A stretch of DNA of 64,000 bases from IMG/VR virus record IMGVR_UViG_3300036792_000363, positions 60,774 to 124,773 of that record. One strand, given 5' to 3'. Below the pieces are notes generated by a model. The model saw nothing but the letters and a program-made list of their open reading frames with translations. It made no database searches and was not told where the DNA came from. How positions within the stretch are numbered: the first letter of the stretch is position 1; every line of letters begins with the position of its first letter. The translations under genes and the position numbers were made by a program. The DNA comes from a virus. Below, one piece after another: positions 2,993 through 62,897 of the stretch.

Positions 2993-2998
2993 AATCGG
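2993..2998 (-). promoter_or_regulatory. Late promoter motif CCGATT, 8 nt before ATG 2984 (leaderless)
   Basis: Fixed N8 spacing shared with 8 other genes. Confidence 0.7.
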
Positions 2999-3008
2999 AG
3001 AGGCTTCG

Positions 3009-4190
3009 CTAGTCTGCGCCCATGAACGCCAGGAACGCCGACGGGTTGCCGGGAGCGGGGCCGACGGTCAGCTCCGCCTGGTCCATGGTGACGGAGATGA
3101 CCGTCGTGGAGCCGATCTCCGGGACCTGGAGGTAGGCCGCGACGCGGACGGTGTTAGGCGGGCACAGGTAGCTCACGCTGTACCGGGTGGGCGTGCCGGT
3201 CAGCGTGGTGAAGTTGGTGTCGGACTCGGACAGGTAGCTGCTGGACGAGTCGAAGCCCTCGATGCCGATGAAACCGTAGGCGTTAGTCAGCGACCCGGAG
3301 AGCCATACCGAGAACGTCAGGTACTGCCCGGGACTGGCGGTGATGGGCGACTGGTAGATCTCGGTCTTCGCCGTGCCGGCGTCGCCGGCCACGCCCGTGT
3401 AGGCGAAGTTCTGCGCGACGAGGCCGTCCGTGACCCCGCTGGTAACCAGCGAGTAGGTGGCCTCGGTGGCGGTGGTGTGCTCGTCCGTCCAGCCGGTGGC
3501 GATCGTCGTACCGGACTCGAAGCTCGGGTTGGTCAGCAGGTTGGGAGTGCCGCCGGGAGCGACCTGCAGCACGACGGCGATCGAGTTCTGGTTGCGGGCG
3601 GTGCCGTTGGAGCCCCGGTCCACGGTGATGGGGACGCCTGTGAGGCGTCCGGCGGCTAGGTTCACCGCGTCGACCATGAGCGCGGCGTTGTTCGCGGTCG
3701 TGTGGAACTGCGTCCCGGCGTCCGTCGTCCACGCGGCGGTGGAGTTGACGCCCGCCGCAGAGATCATCACCTCGTTGCCGGTGGCGATGTACCCGAGCTG
3801 CACTTCCGGCATGGCCACCGTCGAGGATGAGGAGTTCCCGACGGGCTGGGTGCCCGAATAGGCGGTCAGGGACGTGCTGGCACCCCGGTAGTTCGCGCAC
3901 CACCAGGACCACACCGAGCTGACGGTGCCGGTGACGGTGAATGTGGTCTGGCCGAGGCCGTTCGGGGTGAGCTGATACGCCCAGATCCGGCCGCCAGAGC
4001 CCCCGGCCGGGAGCGGGGTCGCGGTGGAGATGGCCGAGGAGAAGGTCAGGCTCGTCTGGACGTTGTTGCTGTTGACGATCAGCAGGATGCAGTCGCCGGT
4101 GGTGTAGCTGGGCAGCGTGACCGTGATGGATGTGCCGCCAGCGGTGTTCTGGCCGTTCGTAGCGGCAGTGGGTGCGGGGCTGAGCGGCAT
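3009..4190 (-). CDS. Virion structural/fibre protein with C-terminal carbohydrate-binding-like domain
   Basis: Thr/Ser/Gly-rich beta-type sequence; NLLTNPSFESG starts a CBM4/9-like module; ATG overlaps upstream stop. Confidence 0.6.
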   Translation of the reverse strand: MPLSPAPTAATNGQNTAGGTSITVTLPSYTTGDCILLIVNSNNVQTSLTFSSAISTATPLPAGGSGGRIWAYQLTPNGLGQTTFTVTGTVSSVWSWWCANYRGASTSLTAYSGTQPVGNSSSSTVAMPEVQLGYIATGNEVMISAAGVNSTAAWTTDAGTQFHTTANNAALMVDAVNLAAGRLTGVPITVDRGSNGTARNQNSIAVVLQVAPGGTPNLLTNPSFESGTTIATGWTDEHTTATEATYSLVTSGVTDGLVAQNFAYTGVAGDAGTAKTEIYQSPITASPGQYLTFSVWLSGSLTNAYGFIGIEGFDSSSSYLSESDTNFTTLTGTPTRYSVSYLCPPNTVRVAAYLQVPEIGSTTVISVTMDQAELTVGPAPGNPSAFLAFMGAD

Positions 4191-5518
4191 CAGGCCCCGG
4201 CCAGGAACGCGACGAACACCCATTTGCCCTTGGCTGCGTTATAGATGAACCCGAGCAGGTCCGTCGCCCCGGCGGCCGTGGACAGGGTGGGTGCCGGGAG
4301 GCCGGCGGTGAACTCGTAACCGGTGCCGTAGGCCAGGGTGAAACCGCCGCCGGTTCCCTGGGTCACCCACACGAGCATCTTCTGGCCGTCCACGGGATTC
4401 GTGGGGGTGGCCAAAGTGCCGGTGCTGGCGGTCAGGGTCAGCCGGAAGTCGTTGCCCAGGGCGGCGTTCACGGGGGTCGGGTTGCCGAACGCCAGGGTGA
4501 CCACTGCCGGGGCGACGTAGGCGGGCAGCGTCGCGCCCCCGGCAAAGTTCGTGGCCGTGGCCGCGTTCCCCGACGTGGACTGGTTGAGCGTCGGGACGTC
4601 GGCGGCGGCTATGGCGCGCATCGACGGGGCGCCCGCCCCGCCGGACGACGGCCCTGCGAACACCGCGTTCTGCGCGGCGGTCGACGCGCCGTAGCCGCCG
4701 TGCGCGACCGACAACGGCAGGGCCGACACCGGGACGCTCGCCGCCTCGGCCGCGCTCTGCGCCGCCGCCGCCGCGCCCGATACGTCCGCTCCGACCTGCG
4801 ATGCGGTGATGCCCGTCAGATCCGAGCCGCTCCCATTCGGAGCGAGGTAGTCGGAGCCCGCCGTCGCGGGCTCAACGGCGGGCGGGACGCCCTTCAGCAG
4901 CCCCGCGACCGACGTGCCGACCCCGACGGCAGGCGTGGTCGTCCCGTTCGTCACGCCGACCGTGAAGCCGTTCCCGGGCGTGCCCGTCACCTGGGTAACC
5001 GTGCCGGAGCCGCCGCCGGCCGACGGCTGCAGGGTCACGTTGCCGTCGGCGTCGGAGGTGAGCACCTCGCCCGACGTGCCGCCGGGGACCTTCAGCGGCG
5101 GGGACCCGGCGAGGGTCTGCGGCTCCGACCAGGTGTTGGCGGTGCCGAACGCCGTCGAAGCGGGCGGCGCGGTCCCCGGCACCAGCGCCGACAGGTCCAC
5201 CGACGCACCCAGCGTGCTCGGGATGGAGACGTTCGGCGTCACCGTCTTGCCCTGGAAGCCGTCGGGCGTCGCCAGCGTCACGTCGATGGTGTAGACGAAG
5301 GCCGGGGACACGCAGTCGGTGGTGGGGATGATGACCGGGGCCATCACGCCGTTCTCGACCTCGGCGGTCCCCGACCCGTCCAGCAGCACGCTGAGCGCCG
5401 GGTCGGCGACCGTGCCGCCGGCGCTGAAGACCACCATCCCGCTCAGCGGGGTGCCGTCCAGGGCCAGCAGGTGGAGCCCGGTGACCTCGATGACCGACAG
5501 CCCGGCGGGGAACGTCAC
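4190..5518 (-). CDS. Minor virion/fibre protein
   Basis: Gly/Ala/Thr-rich; C-terminal TLSTAAGATDLLGFIY domain common in phage fibre proteins. Confidence 0.6.
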   Translation of the reverse strand: MTFPAGLSVIEVTGLHLLALDGTPLSGMVVFSAGGTVADPALSVLLDGSGTAEVENGVMAPVIIPTTDCVSPAFVYTIDVTLATPDGFQGKTVTPNVSIPSTLGASVDLSALVPGTAPPASTAFGTANTWSEPQTLAGSPPLKVPGGTSGEVLTSDADGNVTLQPSAGGGSGTVTQVTGTPGNGFTVGVTNGTTTPAVGVGTSVAGLLKGVPPAVEPATAGSDYLAPNGSGSDLTGITASQVGADVSGAAAAAQSAAEAASVPVSALPLSVAHGGYGASTAAQNAVFAGPSSGGAGAPSMRAIAAADVPTLNQSTSGNAATATNFAGGATLPAYVAPAVVTLAFGNPTPVNAALGNDFRLTLTASTGTLATPTNPVDGQKMLVWVTQGTGGGFTLAYGTGYEFTAGLPAPTLSTAAGATDLLGFIYNAAKGKWVFVAFLAGA

Positions 5519-5526
5519 GCCGGTGC

Positions 5527-5532
5527 AATCGT
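5527..5532 (-). promoter_or_regulatory. Late promoter motif ACGATT, 8 nt before GTG 5518
   Basis: N8 spacing to start codon. Confidence 0.6.
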
Positions 5533-5537
5533 CCCGG

Positions 5538-6281
5538 TCAGGTGAAGTTGAGCATCGGCACGGCGCGCCCGCGCCGCCGCTCCGCCTCGTCCGCCTGCAG
5601 CAGCTGCGCGGTGGTCGGCGCCGGCACCCGCACCGGCGCGTCCTTCGGCCCGGTCACCAGCGGCTCGAAGCTGCCGTCGGCCTCGGTGTAGCTCCGGCGC
5701 CCGGGCCACGGCCCGAAGTCGAACTTCTGCTCCCCCCAGCGCTCGATCTGCTCGAACCGGCTCATGGTGATCCACCGCCGGGCCTCCGCCCACCGCGGGT
5801 GGTCGGGCCCGATCTCCAGCTCCTGCCCGATGAACCAGATCTGCCCGAACGCGGTCAGCCCGTCGGCGATGAAGTGGATGAGCACCGCCTCGCCCTCCGA
5901 CGCCACGAACGACGGCTCCACCTGCTCGAACTTGGCGGCCGCCGCCATGGCGGCGGCGTGCTGGCGGTCGCGCTCGGCCCGCTCGGCGTCGCTCAGCTCC
6001 GCGGTCGGCCGGGGGCGCGCCACGGTGACCGCGGCGGGCGGCGGGGGCGCGTCCATCGGCAGCCCGCAGTCGGCGCAGAACCGGGCGGACGCGAGGTTGG
6101 CGTGGCCCAGCGCGCAGCTGGCGGGCAGCGTCGGGACGGCCGGACCTCCAACTTGCGTTGGGGCTGCAGGCGCAACCTCCAACGAAACAGGCGATTTGTT
6201 GGAGGTTACCGCGCTCGGGCGCAGCGCCTCGGAGGCCGCAACCACGTCAACGACGGTCTGGTGACCGCTCAATCCTGCCAT
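5538..6281 (-). CDS. Hypothetical late protein with zinc ribbon (CALGH...FCADCG)
   Basis: Open frame; start moved to ATG 6281 because CCGATT-N8-ATG precedes it. Confidence 0.65.
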   Translation of the reverse strand: MAGLSGHQTVVDVVAASEALRPSAVTSNKSPVSLEVAPAAPTQVGGPAVPTLPASCALGHANLASARFCADCGLPMDAPPPPAAVTVARPRPTAELSDAERAERDRQHAAAMAAAAKFEQVEPSFVASEGEAVLIHFIADGLTAFGQIWFIGQELEIGPDHPRWAEARRWITMSRFEQIERWGEQKFDFGPWPGRRSYTEADGSFEPLVTGPKDAPVRVPAPTTAQLLQADEAERRRGRAVPMLNFT

Positions 6282-6289
6282 GGCGGGGG

Positions 6290-6295
6290 AATCGG
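6290..6295 (-). promoter_or_regulatory. Late promoter motif (G)CCGATT, 8 nt before ATG 6281
   Basis: N8 spacing. Confidence 0.7.
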
Positions 6296-6490
6296 CCGGA
6301 AATGCAACGAGGGCCCGGTTCGAGTCCAGGCCCTCGTCCAAACAGGAAGAACAACTCCGAGAATGATGCTACCGGAAATCGGGAGGGACGGGTGGCGGCT
6401 CTGCCCGGACTGCGCCAGGCCAGCGTAGCGCCCGGCCCTCCCTCATTCCCGGTGCCGGGTTCGGCGAGGCCCGCGCCACGGCACATCGTC

Positions 6491-6497
6491 TAATACG
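6491..6497 (-). promoter_or_regulatory. Class II promoter motif CGTATTA
   Basis: Motif match just downstream of the capsid terminator. Confidence 0.45.
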
Positions 6498-6506
6498 TCC
6501 GGACGC

Positions 6507-6537
6507 GAAACCCCCGGGCCGACGAGGCCCGGGGGCT
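6507..6537 (-). terminator. Intrinsic terminator after major capsid gene
   Basis: CCCCCGGGCC-TCGTC-GGCCCGGGGG hairpin followed by TTT on minus strand. Confidence 0.75.
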
Positions 6538-6569
6538 CACGTGATGCCCATCCGCTGGGCGGTCCGAGC

Positions 6570-7784
6570 CTAGTCGATCGGGCTGCCGGTGGTGCCCGCG
6601 CCGCCGTTGTAGTAGCCGGCCGGCGGGGTGTTGCCGTTGGTGATGATCCCGGTCGCCACCAGCATCTGCTCGGGCCGGGTGACGATCGGCAGCATGTGCC
6701 ACTCCAGCAGGTACTGGCGCGCCGACGGGTCCTTCTCTTTCCACGTCTTCGCGTACTTGCCGGTGAAGCCCTCCGGGGCCTCGTCGTCCGCGGTCGGCCC
6801 GATGAGCATCTCGACCGGCCGCTGGTCGGTGTAGTTGCCCATGTAGAGCTGGCCGTCAGGGACGAAGAACGTCAGGTTCCCGAGGTCGGACTCGAAGACC
6901 TGCTCCACCGTGTTCCAGGTGAGGCCCATGAACCCGGTCATGATGCCGGTCGAGTAGAACTCGTCCTTCATCCGGTCGCTCAGCATGGTGGCCGGGATGC
7001 TGACGGTGGACGCCTGCGTGGCGCTCACCCACGCCTCCATCAGGGCCGCCATCGTCACCGAGGTGGCGAACACCTCCTTGGCCGGCACGCGGCCGTGGAT
7101 CTGCAGCAGCCGCTTCCACGACCGGACGTCCTCGATCATCGACACCGGGGTGGCGTAGGTGATGGTGCCGCCGGAGGCGTTCAGCCTCGTGTTCGGCTGC
7201 CCGAGGGTGGACGCGCTGCCCGCCGCGCCGCTGTTGCCGCTCGCGCCGCCGGTGGTGTAGTAGCCGAGCGCGGTGTTCTCCACCCACGGCGTCGCCGGGG
7301 TGACGAAGTGGCTGCTCGGGAACTTGAAGTCGATCGTCGCCTGGATGTCGGCGTAGTTGTACTGGATCGCCCCGCCCAGGGCCTGCCAGCAGCTCCACTC
7401 GGCGAAGTTGTCGAACCGCTGGTTGATGTCGTTGATCTCGCGCAGCACCGCGCGCTCGGCGTTGATCTGGGCGATCTCGCCGGGGGTCCGCAGCCAGTGC
7501 AGGGTGGTCGGCTCGAAGACCTTCTTCTCGCGCAGGTAGATGAAGCTGGCGCTTTCCTGCGAGCGCCCGAGGCGGCTGATGATGTGCGCCTCGGAGTTGG
7601 GCACGTTCGGCTTGGCGACCGCGCGCGACCCCTTCACCACGTCCCAGGTGGCGGACGGGAAGGGCCACGGGGTCTGGTCAAGCCGGTTGAGCATGAGCAG
7701 CGTCTCGGGGGTCACGAACTTCTCGACCACGCCCCTCAAAACGACGGGTTCGAGTAGGCTGATGTCAGGAATCGCGTCCACCAC
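6570..7784 (-). CDS. Major capsid protein (lambda gpE / Phage_cap_E type)
   Basis: PDISLLEPVVLRGVVE, YLREKKVF, EWSCWQALGG, KTWKEKDPS, LPIVTRPE motifs; start uncertain (GTG 7784, GTG 7781 or ATT 7772). Confidence 0.85.
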   Translation of the reverse strand: MVDAIPDISLLEPVVLRGVVEKFVTPETLLMLNRLDQTPWPFPSATWDVVKGSRAVAKPNVPNSEAHIISRLGRSQESASFIYLREKKVFEPTTLHWLRTPGEIAQINAERAVLREINDINQRFDNFAEWSCWQALGGAIQYNYADIQATIDFKFPSSHFVTPATPWVENTALGYYTTGGASGNSGAAGSASTLGQPNTRLNASGGTITYATPVSMIEDVRSWKRLLQIHGRVPAKEVFATSVTMAALMEAWVSATQASTVSIPATMLSDRMKDEFYSTGIMTGFMGLTWNTVEQVFESDLGNLTFFVPDGQLYMGNYTDQRPVEMLIGPTADDEAPEGFTGKYAKTWKEKDPSARQYLLEWHMLPIVTRPEQMLVATGIITNGNTPPAGYYNGGAGTTGSPID

Positions 7785-7896
7785 CCTTGAGCGGATAGGC
7801 TGTCTGTTAAAAGTCTGTAGCAGCGACACCCGCTTGAGAGTGCCCGGCCTGCGCCGCCCCCGAGGGAGCCACCTGGCTGGCCTGTCTGGGCGTGTT

Positions 7897-7902
7897 AATC
7901 GG
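7897..7902 (-). promoter_or_regulatory. Late promoter motif GCCGATTAAC upstream of capsid gene (about 110-nt leader)
   Basis: Best match to sigma28 -10 GCCGATAA. Confidence 0.65.
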
Positions 7903-7918
7903 CACCAGGGAGGAAGCG

Positions 7919-8680
7919 ATGACTCAAGGCCGTCTAGCTGACGCGGAACCGCGCGTCTGCGTCATCTGCGGGACCCGGTTCACGCCCGCCCGGCGAAAGC
8001 AGGAGGCCTGCCCGGCGTCCACCGGGCGCACCTGCGCAATCACGCTCTCCAACCAGAAGCGGAGCGGGACGCGCAGTGCCGCGGGCAAGTTCGACAAGCC
8101 CGGGGAACGCCTGTGCGACCGATGCGAGCGGCCTTACCAGCCAGCGCGATTCGACTCCCGGACCTGCGGGGCCGACTGCCCGGGAAGGCCTGACGAGATC
8201 CGCGTCTGCGCCAACCCCGACTGCGCCCTCCGCACTCCTGTCGTCACGCGTGTCGTGGATGGCCGGGAGCTGCGGCCGGGCGAGTACATCGTCAAAGGCG
8301 GCAACCGCGGAAAAGCCAGCCAGCGGTACTGCTCGAAGAAATGCCGGGACCATGTGGCCCGCATCCGCCAGGGACAGCGGTTCCGCCGGTACGACGGCCT
8401 GACCCGCGAGGAGTTCACCTCTGCAGGGGAGGAGCGCGGCTGGCGATGCGACATCTGCGGCCAGGTCCCGCTCCCGGACTCTCGGCGCATCATGCTCGAC
8501 GAGCTTCCGTATCTTGTCGTCGACCACTGCCACAGGTCAGGCGAGCGCCGCGGGCTGCTCTGCGGGCCGTGCAACACGGCCATCGGGCTCCTGGCTGACG
8601 ACCCTGACCGCGCTGCCGCGGCAGCGGCCTACCTCCGGCTGTGGCAAACCCCGGCGGCGGCATCACCGCGCGCCGTATAA
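7919..8680 (+). CDS. Free-standing homing endonuclease, endonuclease VII domain with N-terminal Cys-rich zinc fingers
   Basis: CDICG...LVVDHCHRSGERRGLLCGPCNTAIG EndoVII signature; GGGAGGA SD before ATG 7919. Confidence 0.85.
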   Translation: MTQGRLADAEPRVCVICGTRFTPARRKQEACPASTGRTCAITLSNQKRSGTRSAAGKFDKPGERLCDRCERPYQPARFDSRTCGADCPGRPDEIRVCANPDCALRTPVVTRVVDGRELRPGEYIVKGGNRGKASQRYCSKKCRDHVARIRQGQRFRRYDGLTREEFTSAGEERGWRCDICGQVPLPDSRRIMLDELPYLVVDHCHRSGERRGLLCGPCNTAIGLLADDPDRAAAAAAYLRLWQTPAAASPRAV

Positions 8681-8686
8681 GGGGGT

Positions 8687-9055
8687 ATGACCTACATGAC
8701 CTACCGCCGCGCCGGGGCCCTCGGGCAGACCCGCGTGCGGCTGACCCGAAGACGCCGCCGGATGCTGCTGGCGCTGCTGGCCGGGGCGGACAACATGCAC
8801 GCCGAGCGGCTGAGTGCGGCGGCCGGGGTGTGGTCGGGGACGGTGTACCCGTTCCTGGAGCACCTGGAGAAAGCCGGCTGGGTGGTCCGCCACCGCCGCC
8901 GGGTGTACCTGCGCGACGTCTACTGCTACGACCTCACCGACGAGGGCCGGGTGCACGCCGCGGGCGCGCTGCTGCTGGTCTTCCCCGGCAAAAGCGAGGC
9001 CCGGCCCGGGTTCGCAGCCCCGGGCCGGGCCTCAACTAGAAGCTTCAGAACATGA
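8687..9055 (+). CDS. PadR-like winged-helix DNA-binding protein
   Basis: SGTVYPFLEHLEKAGWV...YDLTDEGR wHTH pattern. Confidence 0.7.
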   Translation: MTYMTYRRAGALGQTRVRLTRRRRRMLLALLAGADNMHAERLSAAAGVWSGTVYPFLEHLEKAGWVVRHRRRVYLRDVYCYDLTDEGRVHAAGALLLVFPGKSEARPGFAAPGRASTRSFRT

Positions 9056-9737
9056 AGGCGTTGACCCCGATGCCGGTGGGCACCGCGCCCGCGGCCGTCG
9101 GCGGCACCCCGTCCATCGGGCCGCCGGGGAACGGGGCGCCGAGCGAGGCCCCGGACACCGCGCCGCCCCACGGGACGTAGCGCGCCCCCAGCAGCGTCAG
9201 CGCCTGGCCGACGCCGGAGCCGACGCCGTTCTGCAGGATGTTGGTGGTGTCGGTGCCGGAGACCACGTTGCCGTTGAGGATGCCGCGGACCACCACGTTC
9301 CCGAGCGCGTCGACCGGGCCCTTGCCCGCCGGGCTGGGCGGGAACAGGCCGGTGGCGGCGCTGCCCGACAGCGTGATGCCGTCCGGGTTGACGTTGTTGG
9401 TGTTGGAGTTGTACGCGCTCAGGCTGGCCGAGCCGGGGCCGCCGGTGTCGCGCGCGTCGCGCAGCACCCCCACCGGGTTGGCGCGCCCGTCGGTGGCGGC
9501 CGCGTTGTAGGCGAAGTAGCGCCCGCTCGCCGTGTGCCGGGCGATGATGCAGCCGGTCGGCAGGACGCCCTGCCCGGCGGCCAGGGTGACCCCGCGCTGG
9601 GTGAACCCGGCGTAGGACAGCAGGAGTTCCTGGACGGCCTCGGCGTGGAACTCGTCGCCGTAGGGCTGCCCGTACTCATGGGTCGGCTTGCTGTAGCCGG
9701 GCGGGTAGTTGAACTCCACGCTGTCGTTGGCTGGCAT
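9045..9737 (-). CDS. Head decoration protein (gpD/HDPD-like)
   Basis: VTLAAGQGVLPTGCIIARHTASGRYFAYN...GVL pattern; between protease and capsid. Confidence 0.75.
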   Translation of the reverse strand: MPANDSVEFNYPPGYSKPTHEYGQPYGDEFHAEAVQELLLSYAGFTQRGVTLAAGQGVLPTGCIIARHTASGRYFAYNAAATDGRANPVGVLRDARDTGGPGSASLSAYNSNTNNVNPDGITLSGSAATGLFPPSPAGKGPVDALGNVVVRGILNGNVVSGTDTTNILQNGVGSGVGQALTLLGARYVPWGGAVSGASLGAPFPGGPMDGVPPTAAGAVPTGIGVNAFMF

Positions 9738-9764
9738 TCCCGGTGCTCCTTGTGCTCGGCCCGG

Positions 9765-10883
9765 TTACTTCCGGGTGCCGTCCGGCGTGAAGAACTCGCT
9801 GTGCGTGGCGGTCAGGCGCGCCAGTTCCGCGTCGATGTCCTGCTCCTGCTTCTGCTCCCCGTCAGGCCCGCCGATGCCCTTCTGGTTGTTCAGCGCGACG
9901 TACGGGCTGCCGGCGGGGGCGAGGATGGCGTCCAGGCCGGGGCGGTTGGACAGCGCCATCTGGACGGCGACCTCGCGCGTCTTCGGCAGCAGCCGCCCGG
10001 CGGCGATGTACCCGTCCACCTCGGTGCCCGCGGCGGCCAGCTGCAGCTCGTCCACCTTGGTGCTCAGGCCCCGGTTGTCCGCGGCCAGCTCCACCACCGC
10101 GGCGGTCACGTCGGAGAGGGTCAGCTGCCCGTTGTCGGGGGCGGCCAGCTGCACGCCCGCGGCCTTGACCGCCTCGGTGAAGGCGGCGGTGAGCGCGGCG
10201 GCGTCCGGCCCGGCCGGGGGGACGGCGGCGGCCTGCAGGGCGGCGACGTCGATGCCGTGCTCCGTCTTGAGCTGCGCGAGCAGCTCTTCCTTGGTAAGCG
10301 GCACAGGGTCCTCCGGCGCGGCGGTGAGTACGACGACTTCGCCGTCACTATCGGCCGAGGCCGCCAGGACCTCCTTGTAGTCGTCCAGGCCGGTCACGTA
10401 CGGGCGGTTGGTGACCGCCACGTGCAGCAGCGTCGGCCCGGCCTTCTTCCCGGTGGAGCTGTCGGTGTAGTCGGTCGACAGGAACGCCGACGCCCCCAGG
10501 TAGGTCTTGCCGAACTTGTCGGCGTCCTGGCGCGCGTCGATGAGCGCGTACACCTTGTCCCCGCGCGAGCGGATGCCGACCACCTCGCCCAGGTTGGCGG
10601 CCGGGCCCTCGACGTGCTTGTTGTCGTCGTTGGCGAGCGGCACCTGCACGATGTCGCAGGTGCCCCTGGCGAAGTTGTCCTGCATCGCCGCCACGAACGC
10701 GTCGTCGATGTTGATCTTCGCCCCGGTCTTCGGGTGCAGCAGCGTGCCCTTGTTGAGGATGTGCTTCTCGAACAGCCGGCCCTGCACCCGGCGCTCGCGC
10801 GCCAGCGCCACCGGGACGTCGGCCACCGGCCGGAAGGTGTCCGCCCCCGCCGGGGCCGGGACGATGTAGCGCAGGTCATCCAT
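9765..10883 (-). CDS. Capsid maturation protease/scaffold (Mu gpI-like)
   Basis: GASAFLSTDY...LLHVAVTNRPYVTGL protease motif plus Ala-rich scaffold tail. Confidence 0.8.
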   Translation of the reverse strand: MDDLRYIVPAPAGADTFRPVADVPVALARERRVQGRLFEKHILNKGTLLHPKTGAKINIDDAFVAAMQDNFARGTCDIVQVPLANDDNKHVEGPAANLGEVVGIRSRGDKVYALIDARQDADKFGKTYLGASAFLSTDYTDSSTGKKAGPTLLHVAVTNRPYVTGLDDYKEVLAASADSDGEVVVLTAAPEDPVPLTKEELLAQLKTEHGIDVAALQAAAVPPAGPDAAALTAAFTEAVKAAGVQLAAPDNGQLTLSDVTAAVVELAADNRGLSTKVDELQLAAAGTEVDGYIAAGRLLPKTREVAVQMALSNRPGLDAILAPAGSPYVALNNQKGIGGPDGEQKQEQDIDAELARLTATHSEFFTPDGTRK

Positions 10884-10889
10884 GCGCCG

Positions 10890-11018
10890 TTAATCGGATG
10901 ACGGCTCCCGGTTCACCGGCAGCGGGCACGCGCTGAGCAGGCGCAGGAAGTCGAAATCGGGCTCCAGGGTGTACCCGGGCTCCCCGTCGTCGCCCGGCCA
11001 TTCCCTGGTGAACGTCAC
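10890..11018 (-). CDS. Small hypothetical protein (MTFTREWPGDDG..., 42 aa)
   Basis: GTGA-coupled to upstream ORF. Confidence 0.45.
   Translation of the reverse strand: MTFTREWPGDDGEPGYTLEPDFDFLRLLSACPLPVNREPSSD
10892..10897 (-). promoter_or_regulatory. Late promoter motif CCGATT, 8 nt before ATG 10883
   Basis: N8 spacing. Confidence 0.7.
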
Positions 11019-11236
11019 CGCCCGGCCTCCCCGACCGCGACGGCGGCCTGCTTCAGCAGCTCCGCCGCCTGGGCGACCTTCCCCAGGCGGGCCAGGGCCT
11101 CCGCCCGGGCCACCAGGTCCTCCGCCTCCGCCAGCCCGAGCCCCGCCAGCCGCCGCCTCATGTCGGACAGCATGGCGGCCACCTGGTCCCCCGGCAGCGC
11201 CGTCACCCCGTGACGGCGGCTGAACGTTCCCGGCAT
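11015..11236 (-). CDS. Small helical hypothetical protein (73 aa)
   Basis: AGGAGG SD upstream; GC3-rich codons. Confidence 0.6.
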   Translation of the reverse strand: MPGTFSRRHGVTALPGDQVAAMLSDMRRRLAGLGLAEAEDLVARAEALARLGKVAQAAELLKQAAVAVGEAGR

Positions 11237-11247
11237 GGACCCCTCCT

Positions 11248-11264
11248 GCTTGACTTGAGTCTAG
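11248..11264. promoter_or_regulatory. Palindromic operator copy (GCTTGAC-TTGA-GTCTAG) overlapping a host-type -35 (TTGACT-N18-CAGTAT, + strand)
   Basis: Near match to palindrome at 22293 and 53712. Confidence 0.55.
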
Positions 11265-11325
11265 TATTTCGGGCAGTATGGGCCTCGGCAACCAATAGCG
11301 CAATTTCTACCGCAGGAGGCTACGC

Positions 11326-11442
11326 ATGGGACCATCATTCGCCAACGGGCCGAGCGACGGCAAGCCGCGCGAGGTGGCGGCGTCCGAGACCACCTTCTGG
11401 CACTTCGCCCACGGCACCAACCCGGGGGTCTACGCCAGCTAG
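11326..11442 (+). CDS. 38-aa peptide MGPSFANGPSDGKPREVAASETTFWHFAHGTNPGVYAS
   Basis: AGGAGG SD 6 nt upstream and its own host-type promoter; absent from ORF track. Confidence 0.6.
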   Translation: MGPSFANGPSDGKPREVAASETTFWHFAHGTNPGVYAS

Positions 11443-11582
11443 GCTGATTCAGCCTCATCATGCGGCGGGGAGTCCACCACGGGCTCCCCGCCGTTGTCGT
11501 CCCCGGGCAGGGCGGCCTCCTCCGGCGCCCTGGCGGGCGGCGTCACCCAGGCCGGCTCGCGCAGCGTCCACTCGGAATCCAC
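11439..11582 (-). CDS. Small acidic/Pro-rich hypothetical protein (47 aa)
   Basis: GTG 7 nt after upstream stop; stop overlaps the convergent peptide stop. Confidence 0.45.
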   Translation of the reverse strand: MDSEWTLREPAWVTPPARAPEEAALPGDDNGGEPVVDSPPHDEAESA

Positions 11583-11588
11583 GCCGGG

Positions 11589-11816
11589 CTAATCGTGCTC
11601 GGCCAGGCCGGGGATCTGCGCCAGCACCGCCGCGGCCGCCTCCAGGTCCTCCGGGCTGCCCGACACCACCAGGCCGCCGTCGCGCATCGACGCGACGTCC
11701 AGCGGCCCGTAGGCGTAGCTCACCGGGTGGGTGCGGGCGTACTCGAACAGGTTGATGACCGCCAGCGCGTAGGAGAGGGTGCTGTCCCCGAACCACTGGC
11801 GTGTCTGGTCAGCCAC
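11589..11816 (-). CDS. Hypothetical protein (75 aa)
   Basis: Coupled to the Mu-F-like gene; GGGGAAG SD. Confidence 0.6.
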   Translation of the reverse strand: MADQTRQWFGDSTLSYALAVINLFEYARTHPVSYAYGPLDVASMRDGGLVVSGSPEDLEAAAAVLAQIPGLAEHD

Positions 11817-12810
11817 TTCCCCCTGCCAGTCTCTTCAGTACCAGGTCCAGCTGGTGGGCCGCGGCCTGCAGGAACGCCAGGTCGGCCTGGTAGGCCTCCT
11901 CCGGCATGTCCCTGACGTCCTCCGCCGACACGAACCCGGCCGGCTCGGCGGGGGTCACGACGGCGGCCGCCCCTCCGGCCCGGACGATCTCCAGCCAGCA
12001 CCGGCAGAACGGGTGGAGGAGAGGGCCCTGCAGCTGCCCGTGGTACAGGCGGGGCGGGTGCGTGTAGATGATACGCGCGCCCGTCGGCAGGCCGTACCTG
12101 CGCTCCCCCGCCGGGGTGGCCACCCTGCGCTCGGTCCGCTGCGGCAGCGCCACCGCGGTGCCCAGGTAGGGGGCGAAGCTCTCGCGCAGGCCAATCGTCA
12201 CCCCGTTCAGGCGCCGGCACCAGACGCAGCAGGACGGGCTCTCCACGTGCGCCCGCCAGCGCTTCATCAGCCGCTCGCCCCGCGCCTCGCGGGCGTAGGC
12301 ATCCGCCAGCGTCGCCGCGGTGCCTCCGTGGCCCGCCGCCACGCTGGCCGTCATCCGCGCGCGCAGCGCCGCCTTCCGGGCCCAGGCGAGGATCGCGTCC
12401 CGCACCGCGGTGCCGCGCTCCTCCGCCGCCCGGGCCGACGGGTGGTCCCCCGGCTGGGTGACGCCGCGGACGAACCGGGCCGGGCCGACCGACGCGTGCG
12501 CGGTGCGCGTCAGCCCGCGCAGGTGGGGCAGGGCGTCGAAGATCCGGTCGACGTCGGCCAGCAGGTGGCCCAGCGTGGCGTCCTCGCCCGAGCCCCCGGC
12601 GTCGTACCAGGCCTGGCGGACCGCCTCCTCGGCCGCGGAGCGCGCCGTCTCCAGAGCCCCCGACAGCACCGCGTCGACGTCGGGCCGGGCCAGCATCGCG
12701 TCGGCCGACCCGAGCGGGTTGACCCGGGTGACCAGGGCGAGGTACCCGGCCGCCTCGGCCATGGCCGTGGTGATGGCGTCGGCCAGCTGGCGCTCCGCTG
12801 CCTCAGCCAT
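11809..12810 (-). CDS. Head morphogenesis protein, Mu gpF / SPP1 gp7-like
   Basis: KRWRAH...CCVWCRRLNG and PLLHPFCRCWL motifs; follows portal. Confidence 0.75.
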   Translation of the reverse strand: MAEAAERQLADAITTAMAEAAGYLALVTRVNPLGSADAMLARPDVDAVLSGALETARSAAEEAVRQAWYDAGGSGEDATLGHLLADVDRIFDALPHLRGLTRTAHASVGPARFVRGVTQPGDHPSARAAEERGTAVRDAILAWARKAALRARMTASVAAGHGGTAATLADAYAREARGERLMKRWRAHVESPSCCVWCRRLNGVTIGLRESFAPYLGTAVALPQRTERRVATPAGERRYGLPTGARIIYTHPPRLYHGQLQGPLLHPFCRCWLEIVRAGGAAAVVTPAEPAGFVSAEDVRDMPEEAYQADLAFLQAAAHQLDLVLKRLAGGSG

Positions 12811-13279
12811 GTAACTCGGGGTTCAGCTCGCCCCGGAACGACGTGCGGCGGTCCTCCGCGGTGGAGACCACCGTGACCAGGTAGGGGTCCCATCCCGGCT
12901 TGTGCACGGGCGCGTACGGGCGGGCGAGGATCTCGGCCTCCTCCCCGGCGCGCGCGAACGCGAAGTCCTCCATCCGCTCGTGGGTGTCGACGTCGCCCAG
13001 CCGCTCGAACAGCCAGCGGGTCCACGAGTCCCGGTTGTAGGTGGCGGCCGGCACCGCGAAGTAGTGGTTGACGGCGATCACGCGCTCGGGGTGGTAGGTG
13101 TCGCGCCCGCACCGCTGCACCACCAGCGTCATCCCGCGCGCCTCCCCGGTGTGGCGGCCCGGCTTGTCCCGCTGCAGGTCGTCGTCCAGCCAGACCAGCC
13201 AGCCGAGGTCCCGGCGGTAGCGCAGGCGCTCGACCAGATCGGCCAGTTCGATCGGGTACGGCGCGGTCTGGCTCATCAT
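12803..13279 (-). CDS. Hypothetical protein (MMSQTAPYPIELADLV...)
   Basis: Codon-biased C-terminal part of track ORF 12803..14074. Confidence 0.65.
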   Translation of the reverse strand: MMSQTAPYPIELADLVERLRYRRDLGWLVWLDDDLQRDKPGRHTGEARGMTLVVQRCGRDTYHPERVIAVNHYFAVPAATYNRDSWTRWLFERLGDVDTHERMEDFAFARAGEEAEILARPYAPVHKPGWDPYLVTVVSTAEDRRTSFRGELNPELHG

Positions 13280-13284
13280 CTCGG

Positions 13285-13578
13285 TCACCGACCGGAAATC
13301 GGCGGGCGGGGCGGCTGCGCGGGCGGCAGCATGCCCGGCGCCTGCCCGGTCGGGTTCAGGTGCTGGTAGGCGTGACCGGAGATGGCGTCGCCGGGCAGCG
13401 TCGCCAGGTACCCGCCCAGCCCCGGGTAGACGGCCGCCGCGCCGGCGGGGGCGGGGCCCGGCGGGGCGGGAGCCGGGGCGGCCTGCGGCGGCCCCGCCAG
13501 CTCCAGCGCCCGCCCCGCGCTGATCTCCTCCACCAGGTCGCGGGCGAGCGCCATCAGCGCCTCGTGCGGCCCGCTCAC
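13285..13578 (-). CDS. Pro/Ala-rich hypothetical protein
   Basis: GTGA-coupled to portal stop. Confidence 0.55.
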   Translation of the reverse strand: MSGPHEALMALARDLVEEISAGRALELAGPPQAAPAPAPPGPAPAGAAAVYPGLGGYLATLPGDAISGHAYQHLNPTGQAPGMLPPAQPPRPPISGR

Positions 13579-15182: not shown

Positions 15183-15190
15183 ACCGTTCT

Positions 15191-15196
15191 AATCGG
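15191..15196 (-). promoter_or_regulatory. Late promoter motif CCGATT, 8 nt before portal GTG
   Basis: N8 spacing. Confidence 0.7.
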
Positions 15197-15198
15197 GG

Positions 15199-15528
15199 CT
15201 ACGCTCCGCCCGCGGGCTTGGCCCGGGGGCCTCGGCCCGGCCCGGCGTGCTTCTCCTCGTCGTCCGGCTTGTCGTCCCCGGCCGGGGCGTCGATGATGCC
15301 GGCCAGGTTGGCCGCGGTCACGAACAGGTGGCGGCCGTCGTGCCCCTTCACCTGCAGGCCGATGAAGTTGCCCGCCTCGACCGCCAGCGTCACCTCGCTG
15401 CTGGGGACGCGGACCTCCTCGACCCCGCCCACCGGCTTGATGAGGGTGACGACGACATCGCCCTGCTGCGCGCCGGGGGCGTTGCCGGCCTCGGCCATGA
15501 ACTTGTGCCACATCGGCTGAAGATGCAT
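15199..15528 (-). CDS. Hypothetical late protein (109 aa)
   Basis: Open frame preceded by CCGATT-N8-ATG. Confidence 0.65.
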   Translation of the reverse strand: MHLQPMWHKFMAEAGNAPGAQQGDVVVTLIKPVGGVEEVRVPSSEVTLAVEAGNFIGLQVKGHDGRHLFVTAANLAGIIDAPAGDDKPDDEEKHAGPGRGPRAKPAGGA

Positions 15529-15536
15529 GCCGGCGT

Positions 15537-15542
15537 AATCGG
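15537..15542 (-). promoter_or_regulatory. Late promoter motif CCGATT, 8 nt before ATG 15528
   Basis: N8 spacing. Confidence 0.7.
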
Positions 15543-15557
15543 CTCCGCTACGCTGCC

Positions 15558-15893
15558 GTGGTGAACCTGCCCGCGCCGGTGCCCGAGCCGGACTTCGAGG
15601 ACGCCCTCTCCCGGCCCGACTTCGTGCTGTTCGGCATCACCGACCCGCTGGGCGGGGTGATCCTGTTCGCGAGCAAGGAACTCACCAAGGCGAAGCTGGA
15701 GAGCAAGGTCGTCGGGCTGGAGGTCGTCCCCCTCGGCCCGATCGTGAAAGCGCGCGTCGCCGACCGGCGGACCACCCTGTACGCGGAGTTCAAGAACTTC
15801 ACCATGATCCGCGCCGAGACCTACCCCGAGGCCTTCCGCTCGCTGATGAGCACCTGGCGGCCCCCGGACCCGCGGCGGGCGCTGCCGCAGTAA
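15558..15893 (+). CDS. Hypothetical protein (111 aa), antisense to the module
   Basis: Good codon bias; host-type -10 TACGCT just upstream (leaderless). Confidence 0.7.
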   Translation: MVNLPAPVPEPDFEDALSRPDFVLFGITDPLGGVILFASKELTKAKLESKVVGLEVVPLGPIVKARVADRRTTLYAEFKNFTMIRAETYPEAFRSLMSTWRPPDPRRALPQ

Positions 15894-15917
15894 GACCACG
15901 GCGGTGAGCATCGAGGG

Positions 15918-15990
15918 TGGCCCTGGCTGGACTCGAACCAGCGCCGTACCGCTTAGGGGGCGGCCGCTCTGTCCACTGAGCTACAGGGTC
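15918..15990 (-). tRNA. tRNA-Arg(CCT), C33
   Basis: Cloverleaf; loop CC-CCT-AA; A20. Confidence 0.85.
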
Positions 15991-15991
15991 C

Positions 15992-16153: not shown

Positions 16154-16154
16154 G

Positions 16155-54738: not shown

Positions 54739-55016
54739 TACCCCGCGACCGTGAGCGGGCCGTCGGCCCCGGGCGCGGGCCCCGGCGAGTACGTGACCTG
54801 GCCGGTCCCGGTGTCGGCCGTGTAGTGGCCGGGCTCCCCCGCGATGGTGACGTTGACGACGGGGGCCTGCCCGGCCGCGGCAAGCTCCCGTCTGTGCACG
54901 CTCTCCTGGTACTCGCGCACGGTGGCCTGGTCCTCCCAGTCCTTCTTCAGCCTGTCGAAGAACGGCGTGTCAGTGTCGCTGACCATCGCGGCGGGGGTGT
55001 CAAGCTCGTCGGCCAT
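54738..55016 (-). CDS. Hypothetical protein (92 aa)
   Basis: CGTAGCA-N6-ATG start. Confidence 0.6.
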   Translation of the reverse strand: MADELDTPAAMVSDTDTPFFDRLKKDWEDQATVREYQESVHRRELAAAGQAPVVNVTIAGEPGHYTADTGTGQVTYSPGPAPGADGPLTVAG

Positions 55017-58053: not shown

Positions 58054-58584
58054 CTACTCCGCCAGGCGGAAGGCCCTGAGAGGGTGCCCGGGGTCGAACG
58101 CGGCCCGGTTGCCGGCGACGCCGGTGAGGATAACCTTCATGCCTACTGCTACGTCCGGCACGCCGGCGACCGTCTCGTAGCGCAGCACCTGCTCGGTCTC
58201 GGCGATCTTGCCCACGTCCGGCACCACGTCCCCGGCCGCCACCTCGTCGGCGCGGCACTGCGTCCAGGCGCGGCCGTGGCGGTCGAGCGAGATCCGCTCG
58301 CGGCGGAACGGGGCCGGCAGCACCCGGCGGGTGGACGGCACCCGCGGCAGGTGCTCGCCGTCGAAGGTGATCCGCGACGCGGCCTCCGCCTTGGTGATGG
58401 GCACCATGTCCTGCTCGCGCACCGTGGCGGCCGCGTCGGTGTTCCGGGCGATCTCCTCCAGCACCGGCTCGGAGATGAACGCCTCCATCGGCGGGGCGGG
58501 CCCGTTCCCGGCGTAGTACCGGTCGACGTCCCTGCCGAGGGAGTCAGGTATCTCCAGGATGTGGCCCGGCTTGTCGTCGCTCAA
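58054..58584 (-). CDS. Hypothetical protein (176 aa)
   Basis: TTG start with GGGAGG SD; CCGATC late-like motif at 58612-58617. Confidence 0.65.
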   Translation of the reverse strand: MSDDKPGHILEIPDSLGRDVDRYYAGNGPAPPMEAFISEPVLEEIARNTDAAATVREQDMVPITKAEAASRITFDGEHLPRVPSTRRVLPAPFRRERISLDRHGRAWTQCRADEVAAGDVVPDVGKIAETEQVLRYETVAGVPDVAVGMKVILTGVAGNRAAFDPGHPLRAFRLAE

Positions 58585-58996: not shown

Positions 58997-59130
58997 CGGG
59001 CCCACCAGGACCGGTGCGTGACCCGGCCGCGCGGGTAGAACTGCACCCTCCGGCGGCACTGCGAGCACACCCAGCGCCTGCGCCGGTAGCTCCAGACCGC
59101 GAACGCCCGGTGCGGGATGAGCAGCCACAC
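58993..59130 (-). CDS. 45-aa basic zinc-ribbon peptide (WVCSQC)
   Basis: Coupled to sigma gene stop. Confidence 0.45.
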   Translation of the reverse strand: MWLLIPHRAFAVWSYRRRRWVCSQCRRRVQFYPRGRVTHRSWWAR

Positions 59131-59825
59131 TAGGCCACCGCCTTCATCATCGCGGTGTGGATCTCCAGCACCGCCCTCTGGTGAAGCCTGACGGCCTCGT
59201 CCTCTGATACGCCGATGACGTCCGCCACCTCCTGCACGGTCATACCGTGGTAATAGCGCAGCACCAGGATGATACGGGACGCCTCGCCCAGCCGCGCAAT
59301 CACTCCCATCACGGCGGCCAGCACCTCCGACACCACCGCCGACCCCTCCACGTCGTCGGCGCCGGCCACGTCGTGCGGCTCGGCGTCGAAGCTTACCGGG
59401 CGGGCCGACACCGCGGCCATCGTCTCGCGGATGTCGGCGACGCTGATGCCGGTGGCGGCCGACAGCTCCGCCTCGCTCAGCCCGCGGTCCTGGCCGGCCG
59501 CGCGCAGCGCCTTCGACCTGGTGCGGGCGCTGCGGGTCACCCAGTCCTGGCTGCGCAGCCAGTCGAGCATCGAGCCCCGCATCCTGCGCAGCGCGTAGGC
59601 CGGGAAGAACTGGTAGGCGGTCGGGTCGTGCCCGTTCTTCTCGCAGTACACGAGCCACCTCGCGGCCGCGGCGGCCAGGCCCGACAGCGCCAGCGACTCA
59701 AGCTCGTCCATCTCCAGGACGTGCGGGGCCCGCTGCCACACCTTGTAGGCCTCGGCCCGCGCCTGGGGCATGATCTCCGCCACCAGTTCGTTGATGCGCG
59801 CGCGAACGGCGTCGTCGTCACTCAT
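59130..59825 (-). CDS. RNA polymerase sigma factor, FliA/WhiG (sigma28) family
   Basis: FFPAYALRRMRGSMLDWLRSQDWVTRS (region 2.3-2.4), LSEAELSAATGIS (3), LVLRYYHGMTVQEVADVIGVSE...RLHQRA (4). Confidence 0.9.
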   Translation of the reverse strand: MSDDDAVRARINELVAEIMPQARAEAYKVWQRAPHVLEMDELESLALSGLAAAAARWLVYCEKNGHDPTAYQFFPAYALRRMRGSMLDWLRSQDWVTRSARTRSKALRAAGQDRGLSEAELSAATGISVADIRETMAAVSARPVSFDAEPHDVAGADDVEGSAVVSEVLAAVMGVIARLGEASRIILVLRYYHGMTVQEVADVIGVSEDEAVRLHQRAVLEIHTAMMKAVA

Positions 59826-60009
59826 CCTGTCTGACTTCGGCCCGGGCGGGCTCGTCCTGCTCGACTTCGACCCGGGCGGGGCGGACGACGGCATCAATCT
59901 CGGCGCGGGGGATCCCGCAGTGCTCGGCCACCCGCTGGTCGTCCCAGTCCCGGTGGACGCGGATGGTGCGCTTGGCGGCCAGGAACCACTCAACTCGGCT
60001 TGACGGCAT
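59818..60009 (-). CDS. Small protein co-transcribed with the sigma gene (63 aa)
   Basis: ACGATT-N8-ATG start; overlaps sigma start. Confidence 0.6.
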   Translation of the reverse strand: MPSSRVEWFLAAKRTIRVHRDWDDQRVAEHCGIPRAEIDAVVRPARVEVEQDEPARAEVRQDE

Positions 60010-60017: not shown

Positions 60018-60023
60018 AATCGT
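60018..60023 (-). promoter_or_regulatory. Late promoter motif ACGATT in front of the sigma28-like operon (possible autoregulation)
   Basis: N8 spacing. Confidence 0.6.
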
Positions 60024-61780: not shown

Positions 61781-61787
61781 TACTACA
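61781..61787 (-). promoter_or_regulatory. Class II promoter motif TGTAGTA, 6 nt before GTG 61774
   Basis: N6 spacing. Confidence 0.65.
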
Positions 61788-62011: not shown

Positions 62012-62108
62012 GGCTGTCTCCTCGGTCGGGCCGGCTCGGTGAGGATGCCGCGTGCCGTGGCCTTCCGGCCCGCAGGCCGGCGATCCGTGGGATAGGTCAT
62101 CCGCCCTC

Positions 62109-62115
62109 TACTACG
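62109..62115 (-). promoter_or_regulatory. Class II promoter motif CGTAGTA
   Basis: Motif match upstream of 62011 gene. Confidence 0.55.
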
Positions 62116-62130
62116 CCCGAGGGGTGCCGG

Positions 62131-62448
62131 TCACCGGCTGATCCGCTCCAGGTGCTCGGCGTGCAGCCGGTGGATCAGCTCCCGGTGCGGGCGCCGGCCC
62201 TTCAGGTCGGGGTGGTGGTGCCTGCACAGCTTGAACATCCCGCCCGCGGCCTCGTACTTCCCGCGCCGCAGGCACTTCCAGGAATCGTGGCAGGTCTGCC
62301 CCAGGTACCAGGTGACGATGAACACGATCACGCCGACCACGAACGACCCCGACACCCCGGACCAGAAGTCGTAGGGCACCAGCACGCCGTAGGGCGCGCC
62401 GTAGTCGCAGCCGAAGAAGTGGACCAGGAAATGCCAGGCGATGATCAC
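62131..62448 (-). CDS. Membrane protein (105 aa) with Cys/His C-terminus
   Basis: TM segment FVVGVIVFIVTWYLG. Confidence 0.65.
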   Translation of the reverse strand: MIIAWHFLVHFFGCDYGAPYGVLVPYDFWSGVSGSFVVGVIVFIVTWYLGQTCHDSWKCLRRGKYEAAGGMFKLCRHHHPDLKGRRPHRELIHRLHAEHLERISR

Positions 62449-62467
62449 GAGACTGGTGGCGGGACCC

Positions 62468-62731
62468 TCACCCGGCGCTGAACAGCGCCTTGATGTCGGT
62501 GAACAGCTGCTCGCCCAGCGCCGCCAGCTCCGGCCCGTACTGCGCGGCCAGCGCGGCCAGCTGGTTCTTGGCGTTCTCGGCGATCAGGACGGCCTTGCCC
62601 TCGGCCTCGCCCGCCACGGCGATGGCCTGCCGGGCGACCGACAGCGCCTCGCCGTCGAACTCCCCGACCTTGACCTCCACCTCGTGGAAGACCTTCTCGA
62701 CGGCCTGCTCGACGTTACTCAGAACGGACAT
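62468..62731 (-). CDS. Helical hypothetical protein (87 aa)
   Basis: GGGAG SD; late motif upstream. Confidence 0.65.
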   Translation of the reverse strand: MSVLSNVEQAVEKVFHEVEVKVGEFDGEALSVARQAIAVAGEAEGKAVLIAENAKNQLAALAAQYGPELAALGEQLFTDIKALFSAG

Positions 62732-62897
62732 GCGGTTCTCCCTCGGCCTTGGCTCCGGACAGGGAATCGGCTATGTCCAGCACCCGGCGCAATTCGGCCC
62801 GCTGGGGCTGCTTCAGCAGCATGAAGCCCTTGGCGAGGGAGTCGGTGTCATAGTCGAGAAGCGCGCGCAGGTCCATCGCCGCGGCGGTCGACGCCAT
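62715..62897 (-). CDS. Small hypothetical protein (60 aa)
   Basis: TGATG coupling. Confidence 0.5.
   Translation of the reverse strand: MASTAAAMDLRALLDYDTDSLAKGFMLLKQPQRAELRRVLDIADSLSGAKAEGEPHVRSE
62765..62770 (-). promoter_or_regulatory. Late promoter motif (G)CCGATT
   Basis: Motif match with short leader. Confidence 0.55.

Follow-up and report, generated by a model that had tools for sequence, protein, structure and literature searches.

A phage-encoded FliA/WhiG-like sigma factor probably reads -35-less, sigma-28-type late promoters in a large actinophage genome, about half of them predicted to give leaderless mRNAs

The virus record IMGVR_UViG_3300036792_000363 carries a short box, (C/A)CGATT, before genes for virion and lysis proteins, and this box was analysed here in a stretch of 64,000 nucleotides (the window; bases 60,774-124,773 of the 124,773-bp record, 72% GC). 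Our data are probably best explained by late promoters of the sigma-28 type that lack a -35 element and are read by a sigma factor encoded by the phage itself, about half of them giving leaderless mRNAs. The box, written more fully as (C/A)CGAT(T>C>A), would be the -10 element of this promoter class, read by RNA polymerase carrying the FliA/WhiG-like sigma of the phage, and transcription would start 9 nucleotides (nt) past its last T. For roughly half of the sites, the predicted +1 would coincide with the first base of an ATG or GTG codon, producing a leaderless mRNA translated by a 70S-type initiation free of a Shine-Dalgarno (SD) sequence, while the remaining sites would produce a leader of 24-166 nt with a normal GGAGG. 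The class is predicted to drive virion, tail and lysis genes together with a late boost of the sigma operon, as the last tier of a cascade of three promoter classes.

The pattern CGATT-N8-RTG, in which eight free nucleotides separate the box from an ATG or GTG codon, occurred 12 times in the window against 1.44 +/- 1.13 times in shuffled sequences, and none of 100 shuffles attained 12, which bore out the enrichment expected in an earlier note on this DNA. All copies lay on the coding strand. The nine starts that had been named in that note (2984, 5518, 6281, 10883, 15182, 15528, 27514, 28219 and 60009) were all present, and three further sites were found at starts 11582, 13288 and, internally and in frame, 47446. 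The bare hexamer MCGATT (M, A or C) was not over-represented in the window (21 copies, 24.6 expected); all 21 copies were on the minus, coding strand, and the strand split over the whole genome, whose minus strand carries almost all genes, was 34 to 1. A histogram of box-to-start distances from 0 to 30 nt returned a single spike at 8 nt, with 13 sites in this genome and practically none elsewhere, and the same spike contained 10, 11, 6 and 12 sites in four relatives. All pentamers at positions -13 to -9 of candidate starts were then tabulated in five related genomes, and CGATT ranked first, with 45 observed copies vs 0.59 expected. CGATC (14 vs 1.7) and CGATA (5 vs 0.3) were also enriched, and the second rank was taken by CGTAG, a member of the separate CGTAGTA class described below.

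A megablast search with 7 kb against GenBank phages returned no close DNA relative, and a scan of IMG/VR queried with the single sigma protein gave no match; an alignment-based scan succeeded and returned 9 contigs of 100-152 kb encoding the phage sigma. The comparisons included the record itself (G000), the IMG/VR relatives G001, G003, G004 and G005, and the closest cultured relative, Microbacterium phage Magritte (L001; OR553905.1, 133 kb), whose portal is 51% identical and whose gene order is mostly collinear. CGATW-N8-RTG (W, A or T) was found 9-15 times on the coding strand of five sigma-bearing IMG/VR contigs vs 0-3 times on the opposite strand. A reversed-pattern control in the same contigs returned 0-2 copies, and three unrelated actinophages (45-55 kb) showed 0-2 copies of CGATW-N8-RTG with no strand bias. 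At the orthologues of the N8 genes in the four IMG/VR relatives, the box and the 8-nt distance were kept at the aligned N-terminus. The portal gene had the N8 arrangement in four genomes, the box being kept in G001, G004 and G005, and the G003 portal has an SD-led start instead. In Magritte, whose sigma is 32% identical to that of the phage, the box takes the variant form CGATATCCCTG. About ten copies of the Magritte variant YCGATATCCCTG were counted; gp98 has one at N8 from its ATG, as do the scaffold gene gp19 and the gene in the position of gp9, both with CCGATATCCCTGAC-ATG, and leadered copies precede the major tail protein gene, gp17, gp23 and gp41. The true start of Magritte gp9 (5332-5799) is probably at 5353, where the CCGATATCCCTGAC-ATG sequence lies, and not at the annotated 5332. 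Start-codon calls can be corrected in this way because SD-based gene finders miss these starts.

The same comparisons bear on the idea that conserved gene junctions produce the N8 pattern incidentally, or that it is an RNA-processing signal that trims transcripts to leaderless messages. Junctions are compact and several boxes overlap stop codons, as such an origin would have it. However, relatives differ freely in the flanking DNA and in the N8 spacer but not in the box or its distance, the box occurs at non-homologous genes and has changed as a set (CGATT to CGATATCCCTG) in Magritte, and no nuclease candidate was identified, so that we consider this origin very improbable.

The genes behind the boxes fell into two contexts. 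SD sites were found at 6 of the 65 genes with a box at N8 or N9 vs 504 of the 1078 other genes (47%; Fisher p 2.6e-10), and N8 starts were exclusively ATG or GTG. Taken together with the exact spacing, these features fit the prediction that N8-site mRNAs are leaderless. In mycobacteria a 5'-terminal ATG or GTG suffices for translation and leaderless mRNAs represent about a quarter of all mRNAs (PMC4633059); leaderless initiation at ATG or GTG is robust there, and was assumed to be robust in the host of the phage as well. The box also occurs 24-166 nt upstream of other genes, each with a GGAGG-type site before its start codon, which here include the genes for the endolysin, the capsid, the major tail protein and the tail assembly chaperone, those starting at window positions 25868 and 62731, and others. 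The predicted +1 of the leadered sites was a purine in 52% of cases, which is not informative, with a mild A/G excess at +2 to +4.

Leadered boxes, too, were conserved at orthologues, and the one at 62765 was kept as CGATA or CGATT in G001 and G003. The endolysin orthologue is leadered here and in G003 and N8-leaderless in G001, and orthologues of the gene at genome position 28825 alternate between leaderless and SD-led forms. Orthologues of the 534-amino acid (aa) gene starting at 27514 lack the box in G001, G003 and G004 and have a TGATG overlap instead. Late transcription had been described earlier as largely leaderless: the SD depletion fits leaderless messages, but only about half of the sites are of this kind. 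Likewise, four of five proposed leadered sites (7897, 25904, 41846 and 62765) were retained, but the sequence of the fifth, at 19268, is GCGATT, which departs from (C/A)CGATT; short leaders of 33-37 nt with GGGAG or GGAGG were found at three sites, whereas the capsid leader, of about 100-166 nt, is not short.

What follows the box is thus in some cases a start codon exactly 8 nt away and in others a normal leader; the box therefore behaves as a promoter with a fixed start point and not as a translation signal. The opposite possibility is that the box acts in the mRNA, as a non-canonical element for translation initiation or regulator binding (an SD substitute, or a site of the RegA type) on polycistronic late transcripts. 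At N8 sites the box occupies positions -14 to -9, where an SD sequence usually lies, its spacing to the start codon is exact, and many sites fall in very short gaps within apparent operons, some overlapping the upstream stop codon, all of which would suit such an element. On the other hand, the arrangement with the box 24-166 nt upstream of GGAGG-bearing genes is conserved at orthologues, CCGAUU could pair with the 3' tail of 16S rRNA by only about 4 bp including a wobble in our own reading, and its invariant CC would stay unexplained. Moreover, the match to the sigma-28 -10 in sequence and register, alongside intact -10 readers in the sigma, would have to be a coincidence, and a role in the mRNA appears unlikely.

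This match was evaluated against known sigma-28 promoters. In Pseudomonas aeruginosa fliC the -10 element is (-15)GCCGATAA(-8) with A-11 flipped out, and sigma-28 residue R80 contacts G-12, D87 is close to -12/-13 and the extended -10 is read by R97 (PMC12784957). The WhiG consensus, with TAAA at -35 and GCCGATAA at -10, is common to host WhiG and FliA (PMC8325347). When the A or G of the start codon is taken as the +1, CCGATT-N8 places C-14, C-13, G-12, A-11, T-10 and T-9 in the same register as the sigma-28 -10, with five core positions identical. The resemblance proposed earlier is therefore borne out by the sequence and by the exact register. Upstream regions were searched for a -35 element by anchored information content and by 4-6-mer enrichment vs 854 control upstream regions. 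The TAAA box occurred at 0 of 106 candidate sites and neither procedure returned any upstream element at these sites, the best k-mer being AGTGC at an unconvincing 7 of 106, in agreement with the lack of a conserved -35 that had previously been judged by eye.

The candidate reader, a protein of 231 aa, is encoded on the minus strand at 59130-59825 and is a diverged group-3 sigma of the FliA/SigD/WhiG type. FliA_WhiG was its best-scoring family (TIGR02479, E 5e-27, 95 bits), while an ECF (extracytoplasmic function) model gave 59 bits and the SigB/F/G model 43 bits; in Pfam, region 4 was strong and regions 2 and 3 were weak. The best sequence match in the PDB was Escherichia coli FliA (6pmi_F, E 4e-17), and the protein aligned over its full length with E. 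coli FliA, P. aeruginosa FliA and Streptomyces venezuelae WhiG. An AlphaFold model (predicted local distance difference test, pLDDT, 85) returned SigD, sigma-28 and WhiG as top Foldseek matches, full length over 223-260 columns. Residues Y77, R81, D88, R91 and R98 of the phage sigma align with Y76, R80, D87, R90 and R97 of P. aeruginosa sigma-28, which read the -10 and extended -10, so that the readers known from P. aeruginosa (Y76, R80, D87, R97) and from E. coli (D81, R84, R91) are retained. In 34 homologues R81, D88, R91 and R98 were invariant, and Y77 was kept in at least 90%.

The readers of the TAAA -35, assigned to S224 and Q228 in P. aeruginosa (PMC12784957), are not kept: Q228 is replaced by Arg213, itself kept in at least 90%, and S224 by D209, which is variable. 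Their loss agrees with the DNA lacking TAAA or any other upstream element. The earlier note had suggested a sporulation-type sigma that might perturb host development. No evidence was found for a sporulation type or for an effect on development or sporulation of the host, and the residues that would read the TAAA -35 of host sigma-28 promoters are altered.

Homologues of the sigma numbered 191 at E <= 1e-5, mostly on phage-sized metagenome contigs (the longest 100-155 kb), the nearest being 85% identical, and IMG automatic annotation labels such homologues 'FliA'. Magritte gp47 (47155-47895), annotated as a 'DNA binding protein', is a FliA-like sigma and the only sigma of that phage. The sole genome match, with 64% identity, was located on a 702-kb contig of a 'Chloroflexia' metagenome-assembled genome (CAVZQK010000010.1, 643281-649964). 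About 2 kb downstream of this homologue the GC content drops from about 72% to 55%, and because of this adjoining break the sigma-bearing segment is probably an assembly chimera or an inserted phage fragment.

Two other motif classes were found in the genome. The sequence (C)GTAGTA-N6-ATG/GTG appears to be a second leaderless promoter-like class: CGTAGTA-N6-RTG gave a single spike at 6 nt, with 8, 7 and 10 sites in G000, G001 and G004 respectively, located at replication and recombination genes, and no CGTAGTA at N6 was found in G005 and Magritte. An ECF-like sigma is encoded in the early block at genome positions 6831-7412. It is present in G000, G001 and G004 and absent from G005 and Magritte, which keep the CGAT box set without it, Magritte with the CGATA class. 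In G003, which is 82% complete, 4 CGTAGTA sites and no ECF-like sigma match were found. No genome has the box set without also encoding the FliA-like phage sigma. This phyletic pattern links CGAT(T/C/A) to the FliA-like sigma and CGTAGTA to the ECF-like one.

The ECF-like sigma, considered as a reader of CGATT, is ruled against by the same pattern. A reader other than the phage FliA-like sigma, be it the ECF-like protein or a host WhiG, SigD or FliA homologue, has in its favour that the genome does encode the former (6831-7412) and that the -10 consensus GCCGATAA is also that of host WhiG and FliA (PMC8325347). But the TAAA -35 of host sigma-28 promoters was missing from all 106 sites, the FliA-like phage sigma accompanies the box set in all genomes, and Magritte and G005 keep their boxes in the absence of the ECF-like sigma, which tracks CGTAGTA-N6; we judge such a reader quite improbable.

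The early class has the form CTTGACTnnAGTCAAG-N8-TAGACT, a -35/-10 pair of the sigma-70 type whose -35 is covered by a perfect palindrome that could be an operator, followed by a leader containing a conserved CAGGCA...GAGAGGCAGGCA. Its 16 copies lie mostly in the small-gene block at genome 0.7-17 kb (708-16842); copies on the minus strand occur at window positions 55373, 53728 and 16761, and one at 22309 heads the tRNA cluster. The three classes are segregated along the coding strand: early promoters lie in the small-gene block, CGTAGTA marks the replication block, and CCGATT is found among the virion genes, ahead of the endolysin gene and ahead of the small open reading frame (ORF) preceding the sigma gene. 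In agreement with the earlier assignment, the CCGATT targets comprise the sigma operon and virion, lysis and uncharacterised genes but do not include any replication gene; mapping of the motif classes along the coding strand showed the box to be absent from the replication block.

Distinct classes per gene block, with the sigma operon under an earlier class, support a cascade from the host sigma to the ECF-like sigma, the FliA-like sigma and finally the late genes, the temporal order of which we infer from this layout. Host-type TTGACT-N17-TAGACT promoters would serve the early genes, and the CGTAGTA-N6-start class, co-occurring with the phage ECF-like sigma, would serve the replication genes and the operon of helicase and sigma genes. 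In the distant relative L012, a GTATTA-N7-ATG stands directly on the sigma gene.

A small ORF of 63 aa (59818-60009, minus strand) runs into the beginning of the sigma gene and would come first in the predicted leaderless sigma transcript, with ACGATT at 60018-60023 and N8 before its ATG at 60009. It is conserved (55-63 aa), and ACGATT or ACGATC precedes it at N8 or N9 in 7 of 9 relatives. This weaker box fits a late positive feedback on the sigma. Autoregulation, as proposed previously, would hold in part: the ACGATT/ACGATC box is in place before the small ORF, but the operon is headed by a different class, GTAGTA-N6, before the helicase gene. The product of the small ORF gave no match in Pfam or PHROG; it could be a sigma partner or an anti-sigma candidate, and is the sole candidate for a cognate FlgM or RsiG partner, none of which was seen.

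Several points weigh against -35-less sigma-28-type promoters read by the phage sigma. The score of the protein, 95 bits, is under the curated TIGR02479 cut-off of 189.6, and the 'clear FliA/WhiG-family sigma' of the earlier note is better described as a diverged member of the type. Position -9 is T (or C or A), where sigma-28 has A, and the two relatives at the greatest distance, whose sigmas are 44-45% identical, show a weak N8 signal. The box carries about 11-12 bits of information and would be frequent by chance in a high-GC host genome; therefore either an extra specificity determinant is involved or spurious late initiation is tolerated. As the box stands where an SD sequence usually does, an RNA-level role is conceivable from the sequence taken by itself. 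Finally, nine copies of the box within coding sequences of this genome are unexplained.

Promoters of this kind might also lock late expression doubly, a proposal that we advance with considerable doubt. Expression of SD-less virion genes would require initiation by the phage sigma at the -35-less box of 6-7 nt that belongs to each gene, since an SD-less ORF would be translatable only from an mRNA starting at its own start codon and upstream read-through would therefore be silent for such genes. As a box of 6-7 nt is too short for specificity, the sigma would need a further determinant, for example a T4-like coupling to replication, the 7-deazaguanine DNA modification of the phage, or the small protein co-transcribed with the sigma.

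Earlier work has described, separately, phage sigma cascades, leaderless mRNAs of actinobacteria and late promoters with a -10 only (T4 gp55). The sigma cascade of Bacillus phage SPO1 proceeds through gp28 and then gp33/34. In phages phiEco32 and 7-11 the sigma is gp36 (PMC8948821, PMC4331800). The proposed system shares with these phages the reprogramming of host core RNA polymerase by successive phage sigmas and a distinct motif class for each temporal gene block; it differs in the ECF-like and FliA-like lineages of its sigmas, in its actinobacterial hosts and in that two of the three classes are predicted to be leaderless.

In T4, too, a phage-encoded protein of the sigma family, gp55, reads a short -10-only box, TATAAATA, before late genes (PMC2988020). 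However, the phage sigma is a full sigma-2/3/4 protein and gp55 a minimal one made of region 2. T4 late promoters are activated by gp33 and the gp45 sliding clamp, while no evidence of clamp coupling was found here, and T4 late mRNAs are leadered. Bacterial sigma-28 factors (FliA/SigD/WhiG) share with the phage system the core -10 CCGAT register, the readers of A-11, G-12 and the extended -10 and the three-domain group-3 fold. The phage system differs in that its sites lack the TAAA -35, Arg stands in place of the Gln228 reader, and the sigma comes from a phage gene and would act on virion and lysis genes. As in actinobacterial leaderless transcripts, an ATG or GTG lies at the predicted +1 with no SD and with a -10 at a fixed distance from the start codon; the phage -10 is of the sigma-28 type, not TANNNT, and is packed inside virion operons, sometimes with a stop codon in the -10.

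Full-text literature searches returned no account of this sigma family or motif, of -35-less sigma-28-type promoters, or of serial leaderless promoters in actinophage virion operons. According to the analysis, a large, mostly uncultured clade of soil actinophages (about 190 sigma homologues in metagenomes) would have a complete transcription programme of three tiers, and Magritte is the one cultured relative in which the prediction can be directly tested. If true, it would provide a natural sigma-28-type factor working without a -35 element and would show that leaderless initiation can be used serially within dense virion operons. For high-GC actinobacteria, it would also furnish an orthogonal sigma-promoter pair of compact size.

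CheckV estimated the completeness of the 124,773-bp record at 82%. Gene blocks in the window were named by synteny with the Magritte annotation. The region 62000-37000 contains the genes for a helicase, the sigma, a DnaB-like helicase, primase, DNA polymerase I, single-stranded DNA-binding protein and MRE11-like and nuclease proteins; the terminase lies at about 24900, and portal, scaffold, capsid and head-tail genes run downwards from 15200. Tail genes are beyond the window, at genome 28-58 kb. Pfam matches in the window included a Mu-type portal, a Mu-like protease/scaffold, an E-type capsid protein and a GH25 endolysin, and 34 tRNA genes occur at 15916-22003.

The individual boxes, all on the minus strand, are as follows. 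At N8 sites, CCGATT at 2993-2998 precedes the ATG at 2984 of a DUF6424 protein, a start named earlier and confirmed here, ACGATT at 5527-5532 the GTG at 5518 of a 442-aa protein, and CCGATT at 6290-6295 the ATG at 6281 of a 247-aa homologue of Magritte gp23. The scaffold/protease gene, homologous to Magritte gp19, starts with the ATG at 10883 behind CCGATT at 10892-10897, with the upstream TAA stop within the box. The next box, ACGATT at 11591-11596, overlaps an upstream TAG stop and leads to the GTG at 11582 of a 47-aa ORF, uncertain as a gene, no orthologue of which was found among the relatives. CCGATT at 13297-13302 leads to the GTG at 13288 (161 aa, phrog_1540), at 15191-15196 to the GTG at 15182 of the Mu-type portal (Pfam Portal_Mu, 3e-32) and at 15537-15542 to the ATG at 15528 (109 aa). 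Further along, CCGATT at 27523-27528 precedes the ATG at 27514 of the 534-aa protein, and CCGATT at 28228-28233 the GTG at 28219 of a 146-aa protein at the position of Magritte gp9.

Among the leadered sites, CCGATT at 7897-7902 lies about 100-166 nt ahead of the major capsid gene (6570 to about 7790). At 25904-25909 the leader has 35 nt and GGGGAGG before start 25868 (266 aa), at 41846-41851 it has 37 nt and GGGAG before start 41808 of the GH25 endolysin, which carries PG_binding_1, and at 62765-62770 it has 33 nt and GGGAG before start 62731 of an 87-aa protein. The GCGATT at 19268-19273 (minus strand) stands just after a tRNA-Thr gene, with a 37-nt leader and an AAGGA site.

GTAGTA-N6 sites in the window include 61781-61786, before the GTG at 61774 of the helicase gene that precedes the sigma, and 40879-40884, before the ATG at 40872 of the MRE11-like gene. 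Others are at 47534-47539, 39052-39057 and 118-123, and also at 62114, 50251 and 46440.

At some junctions the stop codon of the upstream gene falls inside the box (CGAT-TAG or CGAT-TAA), as in the window at 10890-10897 and 11589-11596 and in the genome at 58221-58228 and 54954-54961. In five genomes this was the case for 7 of 48 predicted leaderless sites, and a junction of 17 nt would therefore combine stop codon, promoter and next start codon.

On the 3' side of the capsid gene, a second CCGATT copy at 6377-6382 (minus strand) and the copy at 6290-6295 bracket a GC-rich hairpin of 13 bp followed by UGCAUUU. The hairpin, within window positions 6282-6382, is a possible terminator; its fold z-score was only -1.7, and a consensus terminator scan around the capsid gene made no call. 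A CCGATT-N8-ATG (start 47446; 47444-47460, minus strand) lies in frame within a 121-aa gene at 47162-47527, which is itself begun by GTAGTA-N6-ATG, and this internal site could yield a shorter late isoform or be due to chance.

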